The position numbers and the translations under genes are program-made. The notes below the pieces were generated by a model, which had not been told where the DNA came from, ran no database searches, and was given only the letters and a program-made list of their open reading frames with translations. 59,064 nt of DNA, taken from contig JAFAKO010000099.1 in the NCBI GenBank assembly GCA_019235245.1, positions 1 through 59,064 of the forward strand, read 5' to 3'. Below are positions 1,316 to 35,633 of the stretch, piece after piece. The stretch's first letter is position 1. The number at the start of each line of letters is the position of its first letter. The DNA is from Gammaproteobacteria bacterium. GTDB taxonomy: Bacteria; Pseudomonadota; Gammaproteobacteria; Steroidobacterales; Steroidobacteraceae.

Positions 1316-3550
1316 ATGCGCCTTGCGGATACTCCGCTCCGTCGTGGTTCGAGACTCGCCCGCGTTGCGCTGTGTTGCGCACTTACCGCGGCGCTGGCGG
1401 CCTGCGACGGCGGCATCACCGAGAACAGTTCGGGGCCCTCCGGAAGCGCGGCCACCACGATGCCGGCGTCCCATGGCGCCACCTCCACTCCACCCAGCCT
1501 CTTCCTGAGCGCGAGCCCGAGCAGCGTCAGCAGCGGCGGCACGGCGCAGCTCACCTGGTCTTCGACGAATGCGAGCAGCTGCACGGCTTCCGGCGGCTGG
1601 TCGGGGAATGAGCCTGCGGGCGGCAACGCCAGCACCGGGTCGCTCGCCAGCACCACCACCTATACGCTCAGCTGTACCGGACCCGGTGGCATGGCGAGCC
1701 GCTCGGTGACGGTGAGCGTCAATGTCGTGACGCTCAATGGTTCCTCCTGCAGCGCCACGAGCGGCGGGCTGACCTTGCGCGCGTCCGCGGCTCGCAAATC
1801 GGGCGCCTCTCCGCTGCTGGCGTTCTTTGACGCCACCGGCAGCAGCAGCAGCGCCGTGGCGGGTAACGCTACGACCTTCCAGGACATTTCCTACAGCTGG
1901 ACCTTCGGAGACGCCGGCAGCTCCGGCACGGGCACCTGGACCTACGGCTCGAACGGCGGCCACAACCTGAAGAACGTGGCGACCGGTGGGGTGGCCGCGC
2001 ACCTCTACGTCACCGGCGGCGCCGACGTCACCTACCCGGTGACCGTGACGGCCTACGACGGCACCAACACGGCGAGCTGTCAGCTCCATGTCACGGCTTA
2101 CGACCCCGCCGGTGCCAATGGCTTTCCCGGAACTCAGACCACCTGCGTGTTCAACAACACCGCCGGCAGCGCCTGCCCGGTCGGGGCGGCGCTCTTTCGC
2201 ACGCAGAATATCGACGCCGCGCTGAGTTCGGCCTTCGGCTCGAATCGCCGCGTCCTGTTCAACTGCGGTGACACCTTCAGCGGCAGCTATTCGATCAGCT
2301 CGGGAGTGAGCCGCGCCTCGATCGGCGCCTACGGAGGCTGCGAAGGCACCAGCACCGGTCGGCCGGTGTTTCAGAACAGCAGCGGCAGCACCATTTCTCT
2401 CGGCGCGAACAATCCGACCGACATTCGCATCGCCGATATCGACTTCGAGGATGGCAGCGGCACCGCGCGGGCCGTCTCCACCGCCGGCGGTCTCGGCGAG
2501 ACGCAGATCACCCTCTACAACCTGAACTGCAACGGCATGCAGTCGTGCTACTACCTCGATCAGGCGAGCCAGAGCGGCCTGATCCAGAGCACCGCCACCG
2601 GCATGACGACGAGCGCCGGCACCTACTGGAACTACGCCGGCAACAACTGCCTGAACGGATCGGTCGCAGCCGGCTGCGGCGGGTCCGGCGGCTACTACGA
2701 CGTCAGCTACAACGCACTGCTCGGCAACAGCTTGGACGGGCAGGGAGCAACGAGCGGCGGCAGCCCCATCGACACGGTGCGCGTGGGCGCCTGCCGGATG
2801 TGCGTGATCGCCGACAACACCTTCCGCAACGCCAACAACCTGGGGGCGGTCCTCAACCTCCACTCCGGCAACACCGCCGCGGGCCAGGCGACCTGGATCG
2901 GGCAGTACACCGAGCTCGTGCAGGTCTCCGACAACCTCTTCACCGGCGCTGCCGGTGCGCAGCTGGTCGAGACCGCGCCGCAGAACCCGTCGAATGATGA
3001 GCGGCTGCGCAACGTCGTGGTCGAGCGCAGCCTGTTCCTCGCCGTATCCGGGGGCGCCGGCCGACAGATCCTGGTGTCCGCGGTGAATGAGACACTGCGC
3101 GACAACGTGTTCAACGTCAGCGCTGCGGACGCCACGCCGCCGCAGTACGCCGCGCAGGTCGCACAGCGCGGCATGGAGCCGGTGCCGCAGTACGTGGAGC
3201 TCTACAACAATAGCTGTTACGCGCTGCAGACGATGGGCAGCTGTATCGGGTTCGATGGCACGGGTTTCGCGGCGCCCGGAAACAACAGCTGGGCGAGCAA
3301 CACCCTCTTCTACGATAACGCCATGACGACCGCCGTGGTGGTCGACCACGGCAGCGGCAACACCGTCGGCACCAACAGTGCCGATTCGTCGCTCGATCCC
3401 CTGATGGCGGATGCGAGCGGTACTTTCGGCCTGATATCCGACTTCCAGCCGACCCAGAACTATGCCGGGGGCAGCGCGGTACCGGTGTGGTATGACGCAC
3501 TCGCTGTGGCCTGGAGCCCCACCTGGAGCCTCGGCGCGGTCGCGCCCTGA
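1316..3550 (+). CDS. exported lipoprotein with Ig-like, PKD-like and right-handed beta-helix-like regions
   Basis: Internal ATG 1316 gives a signal peptide plus lipobox (LTAALAAC). Ig-like module LTWSSTNASSCTASGGWSG..TYTLSCTG and PKD-like module ISYSWTFGD..VTAYDGTN, then a long Gly/Asn/Ser-rich periodic C-terminal region. Confidence 0.7.
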   Translation: MRLADTPLRRGSRLARVALCCALTAALAACDGGITENSSGPSGSAATTMPASHGATSTPPSLFLSASPSSVSSGGTAQLTWSSTNASSCTASGGWSGNEPAGGNASTGSLASTTTYTLSCTGPGGMASRSVTVSVNVVTLNGSSCSATSGGLTLRASAARKSGASPLLAFFDATGSSSSAVAGNATTFQDISYSWTFGDAGSSGTGTWTYGSNGGHNLKNVATGGVAAHLYVTGGADVTYPVTVTAYDGTNTASCQLHVTAYDPAGANGFPGTQTTCVFNNTAGSACPVGAALFRTQNIDAALSSAFGSNRRVLFNCGDTFSGSYSISSGVSRASIGAYGGCEGTSTGRPVFQNSSGSTISLGANNPTDIRIADIDFEDGSGTARAVSTAGGLGETQITLYNLNCNGMQSCYYLDQASQSGLIQSTATGMTTSAGTYWNYAGNNCLNGSVAAGCGGSGGYYDVSYNALLGNSLDGQGATSGGSPIDTVRVGACRMCVIADNTFRNANNLGAVLNLHSGNTAAGQATWIGQYTELVQVSDNLFTGAAGAQLVETAPQNPSNDERLRNVVVERSLFLAVSGGAGRQILVSAVNETLRDNVFNVSAADATPPQYAAQVAQRGMEPVPQYVELYNNSCYALQTMGSCIGFDGTGFAAPGNNSWASNTLFYDNAMTTAVVVDHGSGNTVGTNSADSSLDPLMADASGTFGLISDFQPTQNYAGGSAVPVWYDALAVAWSPTWSLGAVAP

Positions 3551-30850: not shown

Positions 30851-31303
30851 ATGAAGATACGTGACCTGGCACTTGCGGATTACGCGCAATGGCTGCCGCT
30901 CTGGAACGGCTATAACGCCTTCTACGGTCGCAGCGGCCCGACGGCCTTGCCCGAGGAGGTGACCCAGATGACCTGGAAGCGCTTCTTCGATGCGAGCGAG
31001 CCCATGTACGCCCTCGTCGCGGAGCTCGAGGGCACGCTGATCGGGCTCACCCACTACCTCTTCCACCGCAGCACGACGCTCCTCGGGCCGATCTGTTACC
31101 TGCAGGATCTGTACACGACCGCCGAGCGGCGGCGCACCGGAGTCGGACGCGCGCTCATCGAGGCGGTCTACAGGCGCGCGCACGAAGGCGGCTCCGCGCG
31201 GGTGTACTGGCAGACGCACGAGACCAACCTCACCGCCCAGCGGCTGTACGAGCAGGTCGCAGAGCGCTCAGGCTTCATCGTCTACCGCAGGAATCTCCCC
31301 TGA
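30851..31303 (+). CDS. GNAT-family N-acetyltransferase
   Basis: Starts 11 nt after the ArsR-family gene. Acetyl-CoA motif A RRRTGVGRALIE; 150 aa. Confidence 0.85.
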   Translation: MKIRDLALADYAQWLPLWNGYNAFYGRSGPTALPEEVTQMTWKRFFDASEPMYALVAELEGTLIGLTHYLFHRSTTLLGPICYLQDLYTTAERRRTGVGRALIEAVYRRAHEGGSARVYWQTHETNLTAQRLYEQVAERSGFIVYRRNLP

Positions 31304-31326
31304 ATTGAGTCAAATTGCGGCCGCGC

Positions 31327-31355
31327 TTGCTTTTCCTGCCTACCCTATGTAGAGT
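31327..31355 (+). promoter_or_regulatory. candidate sigma70-type promoter of the PadR-family gene
   Basis: TTGCTT (31327-31332), a 17-nt spacer, then TAGAGT (31350-31355). The predicted +1 falls at or next to the A of ATG 31363. Confidence 0.35.
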
Positions 31356-31362
31356 TACGATT

Positions 31363-31668
31363 ATGGGTAAAATGGATCGCGACGTACGCATGTCGCTCCA
31401 GACTCTCCGGGTCCTGGATGCGTTTCTCGCGAGCCCGGCGGAGGAGCTCGCCGGCGCCGATGTACACAAGCGCAGCGGCCTCGCCTCCGGGACTCTCTAC
31501 CCCATTCTCCTGCGTCTCGAGTCCGCGGGCTGGTTCGTGAGCCGCTGGGAGCGCATCGACCCCTCCAGCGCCGGGCGCCCGCGGCGCCGGCTCTATCGCC
31601 TCACCTCGAGTGGTCTCGCGCGCGCGAGCGAAGTCTTTGCCAGCTTCGGCAGAGGTGTCCCCGCATGA
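31363..31668 (+). CDS. PadR-family transcriptional regulator
   Basis: GTLYPILLRLESAGWFVSRWE winged-helix signature. ATG 31363 or 31375. Confidence 0.85.
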   Translation: MGKMDRDVRMSLQTLRVLDAFLASPAEELAGADVHKRSGLASGTLYPILLRLESAGWFVSRWERIDPSSAGRPRRRLYRLTSSGLARASEVFASFGRGVPA

Positions 31669-32564
31669 ATGGCCACGACATACTCACAGCACTGCCTGCA
31701 GCGCCCGATCGTCTTGCCCGCCGCCTCATCCGACACGCCGCGCGCAGCACGCCGCCGGCCTTGGCGCAACGGCTGGAGGAAGAGTGGCTCGCGGACCTCG
31801 CAGCCCGGAGCGCCGCGCTGTCGCAACTGCGGCTGGCACTCGGATGCTGGTGGGCGGCGAGCGTCATCACCCATGAATTCGGTGCGGTGAGCCTCGCCGT
31901 CGCCCCAGGCTCCGGCGGCACCGTCTCGAGCTGGACCCGGAGTACTCGCGGACTCTCGCGCCGCACCGCCGCGCTGATCCTCATTTCGTGCCTGCACCTG
32001 ACCTTGGTTTATTTCCTGGCAGTGGGGCTCACGCAACACGGTGCGGAAGTGGCACCCCCGCCCTTCCAGGTCGAAGGATTCCAGACGGACCCACAGCGGC
32101 ATGAGCCGCCACCGCTCCCGCCCCCCACCCTGCGACACCTCGAGAAATTCGATCCCGTGCCCCCTGTGGTCATCGTGGACGACCCACGCGACACGGGCGT
32201 CACCGGGGATGTACGGGTCGACCCGTCATCCCACGAGGAGAAAGTCGCGCCTCCGCAGGTCGATCGGGTGATTGGCGGCCCGGGGAAAGGCTTCCCCGAC
32301 ACGACGGACTATTATCCCGACGCCTCGAGACGGCTCGGCGAGACCGGAGTGGCGGCGGTGCAGGTCTGTGTGGACGAGCGCGGCCGCCTGGCCTCTGACC
32401 CGGCGCTCGCGGAATCCTCCGGCATCCGTCGTCTCGATGCGGCCGCACTCACACTCGCCAAGGCAGGCTCGGGACACTATCGGGCCAGCACGGAGAATGG
32501 CCGCCCGGTGAGCTCCTGCTTCCCGTTCCGGATCCGCTTCAGAATGATCGGCGACGCGCGCTGA
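31665..32564 (+). CDS. PadR-associated membrane protein with Pro-rich linker and TonB-like C-terminal domain
   Basis: ATG overlaps the PadR stop (ATGA). N-terminal helical cytoplasmic segment, TM (AALILISCLHLTLVYFLAVGL), EPPPLPPPT linker, and C-terminal GVAAVQVCVDERGRL..SSGIRRLDAAAL..RIRF resembling TonB_C. Confidence 0.7.
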   Translation: MNGHDILTALPAAPDRLARRLIRHAARSTPPALAQRLEEEWLADLAARSAALSQLRLALGCWWAASVITHEFGAVSLAVAPGSGGTVSSWTRSTRGLSRRTAALILISCLHLTLVYFLAVGLTQHGAEVAPPPFQVEGFQTDPQRHEPPPLPPPTLRHLEKFDPVPPVVIVDDPRDTGVTGDVRVDPSSHEEKVAPPQVDRVIGGPGKGFPDTTDYYPDASRRLGETGVAAVQVCVDERGRLASDPALAESSGIRRLDAAALTLAKAGSGHYRASTENGRPVSSCFPFRIRFRMIGDAR

Positions 32565-33882
32565 CCGCAGAAGTCGTTGCGATCTCCTCGAGCACCTCGC
32601 GCTCGACCGCCGGGCTGCGCTCACCGTCCGCCGTTGCAACGATCTCCCGCGGGATGAGTCGCAGCACCCCGAACATCAGAGCCGAGGTGCCGGTCGCAGC
32701 GACCACGCAGTAGGTGAAGCCGTGGGCCGCGCTGCTCGCGTACAGCTGCGTACCGACGAAGTCGCCGCCGCGGTAGGCGAGCTCATACATCCCCGCGACC
32801 AGCATCATCAAAGCGCCCTGCAGCCCCGGCGGACACGAGCGCATGGAAAGATCCCAGAACGCCGTGAACGCGAAGCCGTTGGCAAGACCGATCGGTACCG
32901 CGAACCACAGTGCGCTGGCATTCGAATGGATGAAGAGCAGCGGAATCGCTGCCGGCAACCACAGCAGCGTCGCTCCCCACAGCAGGGTCCTGAGCGGAAA
33001 GCGCGTGCAGAGCCAGGCGTACACGGCCGCCGCCGGGATGTAGCCCGCCTGCTGGATACCCAGAAAATCCCCATACACCCAGTCGGGCGCGTGCAGGTCG
33101 TTCGCCAGATAGAACTGCAATGGCGTGTTGAATCCCGGGCTGAATTGACTCAGGCACACGAGCAGCACCGCCGGGTACGCGGCGCGGTGCGTCACCAGGC
33201 GCTTGAGGTCGCCGAGTAGCCCCGCGCCCTGCGCCACGGGCAAATCGTAGGCATGGCCGAAGAGCGCGCGCGGCTTCCACAATCCGTATACGGCGATCGC
33301 GGCGCTCAGCACCGCGACCAGGCGGAAGGTGAAAGCGGGCGTGAGCAGCGCGAGGAGTCCCGCGGCGAACGCTCCCAGCACGTACGGCGCCGAGGACACC
33401 GCGTTCCACAGGGCGCTCAGGCGTCCCGACATGAGCTGCTCCTGGCTGATGAGCGCCAGCAGGCCGCGCGCCGCGGCCGCGACGAACCCGAAGGAGAGCA
33501 TGACGGCGAGCATGCTGAAGAGCAGTCCCCAGTAGCTGAGGGTCAGCGTGCTCATCAGCAGGAACAGCACCGCCGTGATCGCGCCGAAGATCATGAAGAA
33601 GCCGCGATCGCGCAGGCCGAAGGGGTTCCACAGGTCGCGCGCCAGGCCGAAGAAGAACGCCAGGTAGACCGGCACCGCGGTCAGCAGGCGGAAATTCGCG
33701 ATCTGCTCCGGCGTCGCCCGTACCTGGTTCTTGAGCATGAAGGAGGTGCCGATGTCGAGCAGAAAGCCGTTCGGCAGCACGAAAAAAACCAGCAGCGTGA
33801 GCGGTGTGAAATAGAGGAACGCCGTGCCCGCTCGTGAGGGCGGCGCAGCCGGTGCAGTCAGGTCGGCGCGTGCCCGGTGCAT
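32539..33882 (-). CDS. MFS transporter, folate-biopterin transporter (BT1)-like
   Basis: Start at ATG 33882. About 12 hydrophobic segments. The BT1-like assignment is from general resemblance only. The 3' end overlaps the convergent TonB-like gene by 26 nt. Confidence 0.75.
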   Translation of the reverse strand: MHRARADLTAPAAPPSRAGTAFLYFTPLTLLVFFVLPNGFLLDIGTSFMLKNQVRATPEQIANFRLLTAVPVYLAFFFGLARDLWNPFGLRDRGFFMIFGAITAVLFLLMSTLTLSYWGLLFSMLAVMLSFGFVAAAARGLLALISQEQLMSGRLSALWNAVSSAPYVLGAFAAGLLALLTPAFTFRLVAVLSAAIAVYGLWKPRALFGHAYDLPVAQGAGLLGDLKRLVTHRAAYPAVLLVCLSQFSPGFNTPLQFYLANDLHAPDWVYGDFLGIQQAGYIPAAAVYAWLCTRFPLRTLLWGATLLWLPAAIPLLFIHSNASALWFAVPIGLANGFAFTAFWDLSMRSCPPGLQGALMMLVAGMYELAYRGGDFVGTQLYASSAAHGFTYCVVAATGTSALMFGVLRLIPREIVATADGERSPAVEREVLEEIATTSAVSARRRSF

Positions 33883-34028
33883 GACGCAGCGGACACTATC
33901 ATGGTGGCGCGATGCGGTCGCGTTGACGCCTGCGACGCCCGGCCGCGCCGTATTGGCCGAGGTACCGCCCCGTGGCGTAACGTTGCGTGGCGCACGTGCC
34001 GTGCGTTCAGAACACACGCAGGCCCCCA

Positions 34029-35633
34029 ATGAGCACACCCAAAGAGCTCGCACACGACTGGGTGAATGAGCACCGCCAGACGCTCTCCGCCTGGCACCGC
34101 ACGATCTGGGAGTTCGCCGAGCCCGCGTGGCGCGAGTACCGCTCGGCCGGGTGGTTCGTCGAGCGTCTGCAGCGTGCCGGCTTCAGCGTCGAGGCCGGGA
34201 GCGGCGGCATGCCGACCGCCTTCGCGGCGCAATGGTCGAACGGTCCCGGTGCGACCGTCGCCGGCTACGCCGAGTACGACGCCGTCCCGGGCAATTGCCA
34301 GGCCGCCGCCACCTCGCGCGGCCCGCGGCCGGGCCTATCCGAGTTCGCGCCCGGTCACACCGATCCGCACTCGGCGCTCGGCATCGGCGCACTCGCCGGC
34401 ATCCTCGCGGCGCAGCACGCGATGCAGAGGTCCGGCGTGACCGGCACGTTGCGCTTCTTCGGGGAGCCCGCCGAGAAAGTGCAGGGCTCGAAGCTCGTCC
34501 ACGGCCTCAGGGGCTACTACGACGGCATCGATGCGATGGTGAGCTTTCATCCGTTCTACATGCTGCCGCTGTGCAACACCACGCGCTGGGACACGCACTG
34601 CGGCGCGTATTGCAGCCGCATCTACTCCTTTATGTGCGATGAGCCCGAGACCTGGAGCGCGGCCGCACACGACAGCCCGATCGCGGCTGCACACTCGGCG
34701 GCGCGCGCGCCGGGAGCGAACGTCGCGCTCTTCACGATGTACTCGCTCACCAAGTCGACGATGGAGTCGATGCTCGCTCACAGCGGCGGCTGGTCGCTGA
34801 ATGAAGCGATCCTCACCGCGGGACAGGCCACCGCCGACAATCTTCCGGCGCAGCTCGCACAGATCACCTACGCCTGGCGGGCACCGGAGGTGCGCATGGC
34901 GAATGCCGTGCTCGAGGTGCTCGACCGCAACGCCGAGCACGCCGCGGCGGTCGCGCACTGCCGGCTCGTCAAGCGCTGGGTGTCACGTACCCGGCCCGGC
35001 GTCGCGAACCATGTGCTTGCGCGACTCGCCTATGACAATCTCGTTGCGGTCGGCGCACCGCATTACGATGCGGCGGCGGTGGCCCTGGCGCAGGAGATTC
35101 AACGCAACCTGGGTCTCACCCCGATGGGGTGCCCGTTCCTTCCCGCCTGCGAGCAACTGGTCGATCCGCAGGTCGCCGAGGCCACGCTGCGCGAGCAGAT
35201 GCCCGCCTGGCAGACACACTGGACCTCGGACGACTACGTCGAGATGAGCTGGTACGCGCCCACCGTGAGGCTCTACATCGCACGCCCGATGCTCGCCGTG
35301 CCCGCCGGCTATGCCGGTTATCCGGCGTGGGTGTCGAACGCGCTCGGTGGCCTCGCCCCCTGCATCGATCCGACGATCCTGGTGGCCGGCAAGACCATCG
35401 CCGGCACGCTGCTCGACCTGCTCACCCGTCCCGAGACTCTCGCTGCCGCGCGCGCCGAATTCGCGCGGCGTACCGCCGGCGAGCGCTTCATCGCGCCGCT
35501 CCTGCCGCGGGACTTTGCTCCACCGATCGACTACCGCTGGCCGGAATACATCAGCACTGCGCGCGGGCCGGACTGGTGGATCCCGGCTGCGCACGAGCTC
35601 GAGAGCGGGCGGTCCTCGGTCCAGGGGGCGTGA
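34029..35633 (+). CDS. M20-family amidohydrolase, aminobenzoyl-glutamate utilization protein B (AbgB)-like
   Basis: ATG 34029. The N-terminus (W..H...L...H..IWEFAE....EY.S) and AGYAEYDAVPG pattern resemble AbgB-type M20 hydrolases. Confidence 0.75.
   Translation: MSTPKELAHDWVNEHRQTLSAWHRTIWEFAEPAWREYRSAGWFVERLQRAGFSVEAGSGGMPTAFAAQWSNGPGATVAGYAEYDAVPGNCQAAATSRGPRPGLSEFAPGHTDPHSALGIGALAGILAAQHAMQRSGVTGTLRFFGEPAEKVQGSKLVHGLRGYYDGIDAMVSFHPFYMLPLCNTTRWDTHCGAYCSRIYSFMCDEPETWSAAAHDSPIAAAHSAARAPGANVALFTMYSLTKSTMESMLAHSGGWSLNEAILTAGQATADNLPAQLAQITYAWRAPEVRMANAVLEVLDRNAEHAAAVAHCRLVKRWVSRTRPGVANHVLARLAYDNLVAVGAPHYDAAAVALAQEIQRNLGLTPMGCPFLPACEQLVDPQVAEATLREQMPAWQTHWTSDDYVEMSWYAPTVRLYIARPMLAVPAGYAGYPAWVSNALGGLAPCIDPTILVAGKTIAGTLLDLLTRPETLAAARAEFARRTAGERFIAPLLPRDFAPPIDYRWPEYISTARGPDWWIPAAHELESGRSSVQGA

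Follow-up and report, generated by a model that had tools for sequence, protein, structure and literature searches.

A PadR-family repressor and a TonB paralog with a predicted PadR-docking domain form a conserved gene pair in Steroidobacteraceae

From the assembly GCA_019235245.1 of a Gammaproteobacteria bacterium (Steroidobacteraceae; genome completeness 84%), we analyzed positions 1–59,064 of contig JAFAKO010000099.1, a stretch of 59,064 nt that is called the window below and whose positions serve as coordinates throughout. On its forward strand, the gene of a PadR-family winged-helix repressor (31363–31668, +, 101 aa) runs into the gene of a TonB paralog (31665–32564, +, 299 aa), here referred to as the partner, which joins an N-terminal domain (the N-domain), a transmembrane (TM) helix, a Pro-rich linker, and a TonB_C domain. 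The stop codon of the first gene and the start codon of the second overlap in the tetranucleotide ATGA (31665–31668, +), an overlap that is read directly from the DNA and points to translational coupling. We interpret this dyad, at a probability of roughly 0.6, as a repressor-capture switch that is tethered to the membrane, regulates itself, and is made from Ton-system proteins, the second protein being a full TonB paralog. All parts of the pair that an earlier note on this DNA had listed, i.e., the PadR protein, the ATGA overlap, a helical N-terminal segment, the TM helix, the Pro-rich linker, and TonB_C, are present where that note had placed them, and the peptides quoted in it (RLEEEWLADL..., EPPPLPPPT, and GVAAVQVCVDERGRL...RIRF) were all found in the translation.

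The two genes form a conserved unit. At E ≤ 0.001, a word-based search with the partner returned no fewer than 801 proteins; 120 relatives were listed, which cover 86–100% of the query, are named "TonB family protein," and come from Steroidobacteraceae or Gammaproteobacteria. A search of assembly contigs identified 120 stretches encoding a partner relative, of which 80 loci were kept for neighborhood counts. A PadR homolog (69–89% identity) is located directly upstream of the partner relative in 77 of these 80 loci. Of the three remaining loci, L011 and L056 are truncated at contig ends, and L070 encodes a canonical TonB without the N-domain. The ATGA overlap is retained in 70 of the 77 loci, and in the other seven the partner ATG lies 29–31 nt past the PadR stop codon. 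No other neighbor is conserved across the 80 loci according to a rough gene prediction in the flanking regions, followed by clustering. The co-occurrence count that had been proposed as a check of the pair thus delineates a conserved two-gene unit with varying surroundings, and homologs of the N-terminal segment do occur next to PadR genes elsewhere, both in the 77 loci and in the other fusions described below. In two loci, the partner gene appears frameshifted or truncated, namely L075 (3971–4519; 183 aa) and L054 (3983–4936; split TonB_C match); either pseudogene formation or misassembly of metagenome bins could account for this.

The PadR protein scores above the cut-off of the Pfam profile PadR (PF03551; 35.8 bits vs. 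27), and the genome search gives 35.5 bits. When 66 orthologs are combined into a profile, it matches solved PadR structures over residues 38–90, namely, 3hhh (E = 1.6e-6), Rv3488 (5zhc; E = 8.9e-6), and LmrR (3f8b), and this segment aligns to the helix-3/recognition-helix and wing region of the solved proteins. The helix SGTLYPIL.R.E and the wing GRPRRR.YR.T are invariant across the 66 orthologs. This protein shows hallmarks of the PadR family: the winged helix, a GTLYP-type recognition helix, and an R-rich wing.

The N-domain corresponds to partner residues 1–78 (31665–31898, +) and is a cytoplasmic three-helix domain for which PadR docking is predicted from the AlphaFold2 model, the invariant residues, and the complex model described below. 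The full-length AlphaFold2 model of the partner, built from a 65-row alignment, has a mean predicted local distance difference test score (pLDDT) of 79.5. In this model, the N-domain helices span residues 12–27, 31–46, and 51–78 (pLDDT > 90; 14–27, 31–47, and 51–78 in the model of the N-domain), and a disordered tether of residues 79–98 (31899–31958, +) follows, the disorder being modeled at residues 81–94. Eight non-Met residues of the N-domain are invariant: R36, L37, E39, E40, W41, G60, C61, and A64. The segment LALGCWWAASVI (residues 57–68) is part of helix 3 of the cytoplasmic domain, and homologs carry Arg and Glu there. The segment is semi-hydrophobic but not a second TM helix; the partner has a single TM helix.

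A complex of two PadR chains and one N-domain was modeled using 66-row alignments in matched order, along with three controls. The interaction prediction score from aligned errors (ipSAE) was 0.78, 0.79, and 0.77 in the three runs vs. 0.01 for the best control. Partner pLDDT did not fall below 72, and 91% or more of the contacts recur between runs. The ipSAE mark is reached by 116 of 157 solved complexes and by 2 of 215 mismatched pairs, a calibration that is rough here, as we used our own alignments and a 2+1 stoichiometry. The modeled interface involves PadR residues 30–32, 35, 41–44, 46–47, 50–51, 54, 63, and 72–76, and N-domain residues 33, 36–37, 39–44, 46–48, 56–57, 60–61, 63–64, 67–68, and 71–72, including all eight invariant non-Met residues of the N-domain. 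In the model, the basic RPRRR wing is covered by the acidic EEEW.AD helix, and the PadR recognition helix (SGTLYP) by the GC.WA helix. In winged-helix PadR proteins, the recognition helix and the wing constitute the DNA-contacting face. According to the model, the N-domain probably holds PadR by this face. As the N-domain has no solved relative, it is unlikely that the score stems from a memory of a similar complex. Weak co-variation is observed in the 4-TM sister dyad (see below), where the N-domain has RAEW for LEEEW and the wing of the cognate PadR has RPPRH for RPRRR, a comparison of only two PadR sequences.

The N-domain is not restricted to TonB. Fusions with FecR and ExbD were traced through weaker N-domain profile matches in whole genomes. 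Fusions of the N-domain with FecR were found in three genomes (PF04773, 37.5–47 bits, cut-off 24), each behind the same type of PadR; in one of these FecR-type dyads, L113, the PadR and partner genes overlap in GTGA. In one genome, the N-domain is fused to ExbD (PF02472, 74 bits; L116:1252–1986, −). At L117:1516–1839 (−), a PadR gene is followed by a decayed remnant of 108 aa, in which half of the N-domain is joined to the C-terminal end of ExbD. A word-based search with the FecR-type N-domain yielded 17 proteins, of which 15 contain FecR, one (P0351) contains FtsX together with MacB_PCD, and one (P0341, 227 aa) has no Pfam domain and reads as a truncated FecR type.

The 4-TM sister dyad was found through second PadR matches in loci L065 and L053. 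There, the gene of a 104-aa PadR (45% identical) overlaps by 4 nt the gene of a 202-aa protein, whose related N-terminus reads LVKHAA..P..EW....LGC.W; about four TM helices come after it, and TonB_C is absent. The family of this protein has 69 members, all named "hypothetical." Aligned by hhalign, its N-terminal domain and that of the TonB type yield E = 4.9e-4, a probability of 32%, and 36% identity over 50 columns. These observations fit the N-domain as a portable PadR-docking head that has been combined with at least five membrane modules, i.e., TonB, FecR, ExbD, an FtsX/MacB permease, and the 4-TM protein; three of the five (TonB, ExbD, and FecR) are Ton-system or cell-surface-signaling proteins. 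In L053 (4881–5821, −) and L065 (5299–6218, −), the sister dyad lies within approximately 1 kb downstream of the TonB-type dyad and adjoins a gene similar to gamma-glutamyl cyclotransferase, so that two PadR-capture units are clustered.

The FecR fusions bear on how PadR might be released. FecR-type anti-sigma factors signal through regulated proteolysis. By analogy, and as a variant of the capture switch, a periplasmic signal could trigger site-1 and site-2 cleavage of the TonB-like protein, after which the complex of N-domain and PadR would detach from the membrane, the N-domain would be degraded, and PadR would be freed. The N-domain precedes a FecR domain in relatives, and the disordered tether of about 20 residues that joins it to the TM helix is consistent with such a route. 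However, no protease gene is conserved beside the dyad, a cleavage motif was not found, and cleaving TonB would abolish its transport function. We therefore regard release by proteolysis as decidedly unlikely.

Small PadR proteins paired with membrane proteins are known from the HAAS/PadR-like winged helix-turn-helix dyads, in which, according to Ravi et al. (2024; PMC11237479), a standalone small PadR accompanies a membrane protein. A three-helix domain at the cytoplasmic N-terminus of the latter is proposed to retain the regulator or change its configuration. The N-domain has the same kind of context, being located beside a standalone PadR in 77 of the 80 loci and N-terminal to varied TM modules, and FtsX/MacB_PCD permease fusions occur both with HAAS, according to the same paper, and with the N-domain (P0351). 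In contrast, profile similarity is lacking. A Pfam search with partner residues 1–100 at E ≤ 10 returned only a chance match to TilS (E = 1.4) and none to HAAS (PF22564), DUF1700, or DUF1048, and neither Pfam nor NCBIfam matches the N-domain in these residues or in 31 homologs. NCBIfam likewise gives no "permease prefix" or other match at the N-terminal parts of the FecR-, FtsX-, ExbD-, and 4-TM-fused forms. Aligned by hhalign with a small, Pseudomonadota-only set of 19 HAAS domains from 14 genomes, 66 N-domains yielded a probability of 0.78%, and the N-domain of the 4-TM sister 0.43%, so that neither was assigned to HAAS. The GxP kink that marks helix 3 of HAAS is likewise lacking: three consecutive helices are present, but the N-domain has an invariant G60-C61 instead, Pro is absent, and helix 51–78 is modeled as straight.

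Structure-based and large-scale searches gave a similar picture. The N-domain profile has only chance matches among sequences of the Protein Data Bank (E ≥ 0.05) and no solved relative there, and the ESM Atlas contains no usable match. The comparison of the N-domain model with 48,161 chains by VIA-align returned generic three-helix bundles with a best Z of 8.4, which is below the level meaningful for helical bundles; the HAAS-superfamily structure 2O3L (DUF1048) is not among the best 50 matches listed. A phmmer search with residues 1–100 against 1.84 billion representatives yielded 262 matches at E ≤ 0.001, and the 150 listed ones are all 331 aa or shorter and look like the same family or its fragments. 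As both the profile match and the GxP motif are absent, we tentatively describe the N-domain as a previously unclassified PadR-docking domain and a HAAS-like analog; homology to HAAS is putative at most. Hence, of the proposal in the earlier note that a cytoplasmic helical segment holds PadR, the core is supported by the conserved pair, the recurrence of the N-domain beside PadR, and the predicted complex (ipSAE 0.78 vs. 0.01), whereas the suggested match of this segment to profiles of PadR-associated helical domains was not obtained, with no PF22564 match at E ≤ 10 and only 0.78% by hhalign.

The C-terminal two thirds of the partner are, by the anatomy of the sequence, a complete TonB. A single TonB-type TM helix (residues 99–125; 31959–32039, +), identified from the AlphaFold2 model and the alignment, is preceded by SRRT and contains His111, which is invariant in 65 sequences. 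By its position and spacing after the RR motif, we take His111 to correspond to His20 of E. coli TonB, a residue that is reportedly important; the layout of RR followed by His resembles the E. coli anchor. TonB binds ExbB through its TM helix, as described in the cryo-electron microscopy paper PMC12215075. Behind the helix of the partner lies a periplasmic spacer that is disordered and rich in Pro (residues 126–200, including EPPPLPPPT; 32040–32264, +) and has pLDDT values of 48–67, no secondary structure, and a Pro-rich alignment consensus. The TonB C-terminal domain with the stop codon occupies 32265–32564 (+), with the Pfam match at 32310–32543 and the fold at residues 201–292 (pLDDT 96–98).

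The TonB_C domain is above the profile thresholds that had been named as a check, both for PF03544 (42.6 bits vs. 24.6; residues 216–293) and for TIGR01352 (34.0 vs. 27.1). In Foldseek, this part best matches TonB C-terminal domains, several from transporter-bound structures, namely 9dc4_T (E = 3.7e-5; template modeling score 0.75), 6i97_D, and 2grx_C. Two Cys residues of TonB_C are invariant, C235 (32367–32369) and C285 (32517–32519); they are also present in the TonB of locus L070 and suggest a putative periplasmic disulfide particular to the TonB proteins of this lineage.

Locus L070 is a canonical operon that contains tonB (214 aa, without the N-domain), exbB, two exbD genes, and a gene with tetratricopeptide repeats (TPR). 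Its TonB is 41% identical to the partner over residues 87–294, and 60% over the C-terminal domain, and the two proteins have in common the motifs GGPGKGFP.T.DYYP and AKAGSGHYRP as well as both Cys residues. The same genome also carries a complete dyad, L025. Because the L070 TonB shares these unusual motifs and its genome has a dyad, the dyad TonB appears to have originated as a copy of the housekeeping TonB and to have acquired a cytoplasmic domain. The earlier note had described the C-terminus as a TonB_C-type sensor or anchor; the TonB_C assignment is borne out, but a mere sensor or anchor is too narrow a description of a complete TonB with the TM His, the spacer, and the L070 motifs. Work with ExbB/ExbD and binding of TonB boxes are candidate functions of the partner. 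Its Ton-system connections include a lone ExbD paralog (137 aa, approximately 72% identical between loci) that adjoins the dyad in 14 loci and in one more at a contig end, with remnants in two loci. Its own genome has nine TonB_C matches (eight above the cut-off, in about eight genes) and, elsewhere, seven ExbD-family matches. The other large TonB_C proteins of this genome, on contigs C267 and C236, have no M56 domain, and one of them carries TPR.

The similarity of the partner to the TonB of a canonical operon lends itself to a plainer account of the pair as an ordinary regulator with its target, where PadR senses a small cytoplasmic ligand in the manner of classical PadR proteins and represses the TonB paralog, while the N-terminal extension serves the Ton machine, e.g., by contacting ExbB. 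The completeness of the TonB part agrees with this account, and so does the restriction of the conserved DNA motif to the promoter of the dyad itself (see below); moreover, TonB proteins with N-terminal extensions exist and are described as uncharacterized in PMC10350073. On the other hand, the same N-domain is found on FecR, the FtsX/MacB permease, and the 4-TM protein, three modules that do not cooperate with ExbB as TonB does. What is common to the fusions is an adjacent PadR, L116 (ExbD) alone being without a PadR gene. Further, the complex model clearly separates the pair from the controls (0.78 vs. 0.01) with every invariant non-Met residue of the N-domain at the interface, and the 101-aa PadR has no C-terminal ligand domain. 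An ordinary regulator-plus-target pair therefore appears unlikely.

The region upstream of the PadR gene is strongly conserved. In 77 upstream regions, a near-invariant −35-like hexamer (TTGCTT in the window, family consensus cTTGC.tt; 31327–31332, +) is followed by a 17-nt spacer, the hexamer TAGA(C/G)T, and a fixed distance of 7 nt to the PadR ATG. In the window, the −10-like hexamer is TAGAGT (31350–31355, +); it ends 7 nt before the PadR ATG and lies inside the block aCCCTATGTAGAGTTAC (31342–31358, +; also considered in the shorter or longer forms CCCTATGTAGAC, CCCTATGTAGAG, and aCCCTATGTAGACTTaC), which is near-invariant at about 2 bits per position in the 77 loci. The distance from CTATG to ATG is 18 nt in 76 of the 77 loci. 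The conserved block also precedes the FecR-, ExbD-, and 4-TM-type units. The hexamers are tentatively assigned to a promoter on account of their conservation and spacing, and, from the sequence, the block is read as the promoter core and a candidate PadR autoregulatory site. As the −10-like hexamer ends just 7 nt before the ATG, the PadR mRNA is probably leaderless, with a predicted start at the ATG.

The block occurs exactly once per locus; a tandem copy, CTATGTAGA, at a distance of 22 nt is present only in L081:3575–3625, upstream of PadR. In the window's own genome, the 15-nt motif has one exact copy, and matches with two mismatches number 4 vs. 15 in the reversed control. Thus, no further targets of this motif were seen in the 84%-complete genome, a search in which a shorter operator would be missed. 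With one motif per locus and one in the genome, the switch may control mainly itself. Autoregulation by PadR is plausible on these grounds. For the Listeria PadR repressors LstR and LltR, PMC6624303 likewise states that they "mainly regulate their own operons"; membrane proteins are encoded in these operons.

A motif found only at the promoter of the pair also suits a reverse wiring, in which PadR would be the sensor and its binding to the N-domain would switch the activity of TonB (or of FecR, ExbD, or the permease), the role at DNA being limited to autoregulation. In line with such wiring, PadR is far more conserved than the partner, with a mean column identity of 81% (66 orthologs) vs. 48% (65 sequences). 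Yet an interface on the DNA-binding face fits competition with DNA better than allostery, and we know of no precedent for PadR as an allosteric subunit, which makes reverse wiring very unlikely.

The repressor-capture switch would operate as follows. The TonB paralog would be anchored in the inner membrane by the helix with the His residue, reach through the Pro-rich spacer, and bind TonB boxes with its C-terminal domain, and it would have gained the N-domain of about 80 residues. The latter would bind the co-translated PadR on its DNA-binding surface, the RLEEEW.AD and GC.WA helices being placed on the SGTLYP helix and the RPRRR wing; a PadR held at the membrane by this face could therefore not sit on DNA. 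Free PadR would repress its own promoter at the conserved block overlapping the −10-like hexamer, and the main output would be the amount of the TonB paralog. The state of the Ton machinery would shift the balance between bound and free PadR, the candidate inputs being TonB_C engaging a loaded outer-membrane transporter and energization driven by ExbB/ExbD. A more specific version, which we offer tentatively and consider rather doubtful, treats TonB as a transmembrane signal wire: engagement of the C-terminal domain with the TonB box of a ligand-loaded outer-membrane transporter, or its cycling by ExbB/ExbD, would free or capture PadR via the TM helix. Together with the FecR-, ExbD-, and permease-fused forms, such a wire would be a PadR-based parallel to sigma/anti-sigma signaling at the cell surface, with a capture domain for the repressor that is not related to HAAS.

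Several observations weigh against the repressor-capture switch. Firstly, PadR binding by the N-domain rests on a structure predictor, and the high ipSAE may itself be a product of both sides being conserved. Secondly, coupled synthesis at a 1:1 ratio combined with pure capture would leave PadR permanently titrated, so that a signal-dependent change is needed. Thirdly, the Ton context is incomplete: no ExbB was found within 4 kb of the dyad in the 80 loci, the window has neither ExbB nor ExbD near the dyad, and the TonB paralog is without an assigned transporter partner. Fourthly, L116 is an exception to the dyad, since the conserved block there stands directly before MGTKVRS..., fused to the N-domain and ExbD, and a PadR gene is absent upstream; this locus could be a deletion or a PadR-less variant.

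The promoter reading has weak points as well. TTGCTT matches the E. coli −35 consensus in only three of six positions, both hexamers match that species' consensus weakly, and a scan of 31200–32800 with the sigma-70 consensus did not call a promoter. The block is asymmetric, with no clear palindrome, as a site for a PadR dimer would be expected to have, and at best a partial TGTA-N4-TACA, the right half of which varies; its role may be limited to that of a promoter or a leaderless-start element. Finally, the occurrence of the N-domain is patchy. Its profile matches 19 of 201 sampled genomes of the same GTDB family, in 6 of 40 genera and with two or three copies in some genomes, a lower bound given that only 25 first-look candidates per genome were scored. 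Because of this patchiness, the dyad is an accessory system. It is confined to Steroidobacteraceae-like soil bacteria, represented mostly by metagenome-bin genomes.

The dyad can be compared with several known systems. It resembles the HAAS–PadR dyads in the placement of a standalone PadR beside a membrane protein with a cytoplasmic three-helix N-domain, and it differs from them in the lack of profile similarity and in having the invariant G-C and a straight helix instead of the GxP kink. The window's own genome contains a canonical pair of that kind on contig C367, a 119-aa PadR (72.5 bits; L112:1857–2216) and a multi-TM protein (about 2210–3148) whose N-terminal HAAS match of 25.8 bits is under the cut-off of 27; by this HAAS-like pair, the genome uses both kinds of PadR partner head. 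As in canonical TonB proteins of the E. coli type and of L070, the partner has a TM anchor flanked by RR and containing a conserved His, a spacer rich in Pro, and the TonB_C fold, but it carries an extra cytoplasmic part of about 95 residues, and its gene is paired with that of a repressor instead of ExbB/ExbD genes. A signaling-type N-terminal module joined to TonB_C is also seen in the M56-peptidase–TonB_C fusions, e.g., TonB1 and TonB10 of B. thetaiotaomicron, which are uncharacterized and for which PMC10350073 suggests a signaling role.

The parallel with BlaI/BlaR1 drawn in the earlier note is confined to the combination of a winged-helix repressor with a membrane protein. The regulator is a PadR and not of the BlaI family, the M56 peptidase domain (PF05569) is absent from the dyad (Pfam, E ≤ 1), and capture is predicted in place of the cleavage by BlaR1. 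Of the one-step transmembrane signaling dyad proposed there, the membrane-held PadR is thus in keeping with the conservation, the modularity, and the complex model, whereas the likeness to BlaI/BlaR1 is functional at most. The dyad also resembles FecA–FecR–FecI cell-surface signaling, where a transcription factor is held at the cytoplasmic N-terminus of an inner-membrane protein with one TM pass, and where the Ton system and an outer-membrane transporter take part. Here, however, a PadR repressor would be held and not a sigma factor, and the periplasmic part is TonB itself instead of a FecR domain; FecR (PF04773) is absent from the window's partner protein in Pfam. LstR and LltR (Hauf et al. 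2019; PMC6624303), which are PadR repressors mainly of their own operons with transmembrane proteins, differ in coming from Gram-positive bacteria, in having a RodA/FtsW homolog and Lmo0600/0601 as membrane partners, and in not involving the Ton system.

No description of a PadR–TonB pair was found in the literature searched, although the supplementary tables of PMC11237479 could list such architectures; the word TonB is absent from the main text of that paper, a check that did not extend to FecR and ExbD. TonB has been treated as a pure energy coupler, and here it carries a predicted docking domain for a transcription factor, which is also found on FecR, ExbD, and a MacB-type permease. This distribution suggests that some soil Gammaproteobacteria read the state of their uptake machinery into gene control without a sigma/anti-sigma or a two-component system. 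The N-domain would be a second, apparently unrelated PadR-capture domain beside HAAS, so that the same design may have evolved repeatedly. Most proposals of one-step membrane switches to date come from comparative genomics; here, the repressor (101 aa) and the domain (80 aa) make a compact, testable pair, and the residues predicted to be in contact are sharply delimited.

The genes flanking the dyad look unrelated to it. Upstream, there are ArsR-type and GNAT genes. Downstream, the gene of an MFS/BT1-family transporter (open reading frame 32539–34053, −) is convergent to the TonB-like gene (+), and the 3′ ends of the two overlap by 26 nt (32539–32564). No terminator-like hairpin was found between these two genes, and PADLOC reported no defense-system match of note. 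An open reading frame at 33987–35633 (+, 548 aa) has no Pfam match at E ≤ 1; at its 5′ end, it overlaps the divergent MFS frame when the latter is read at its longest.

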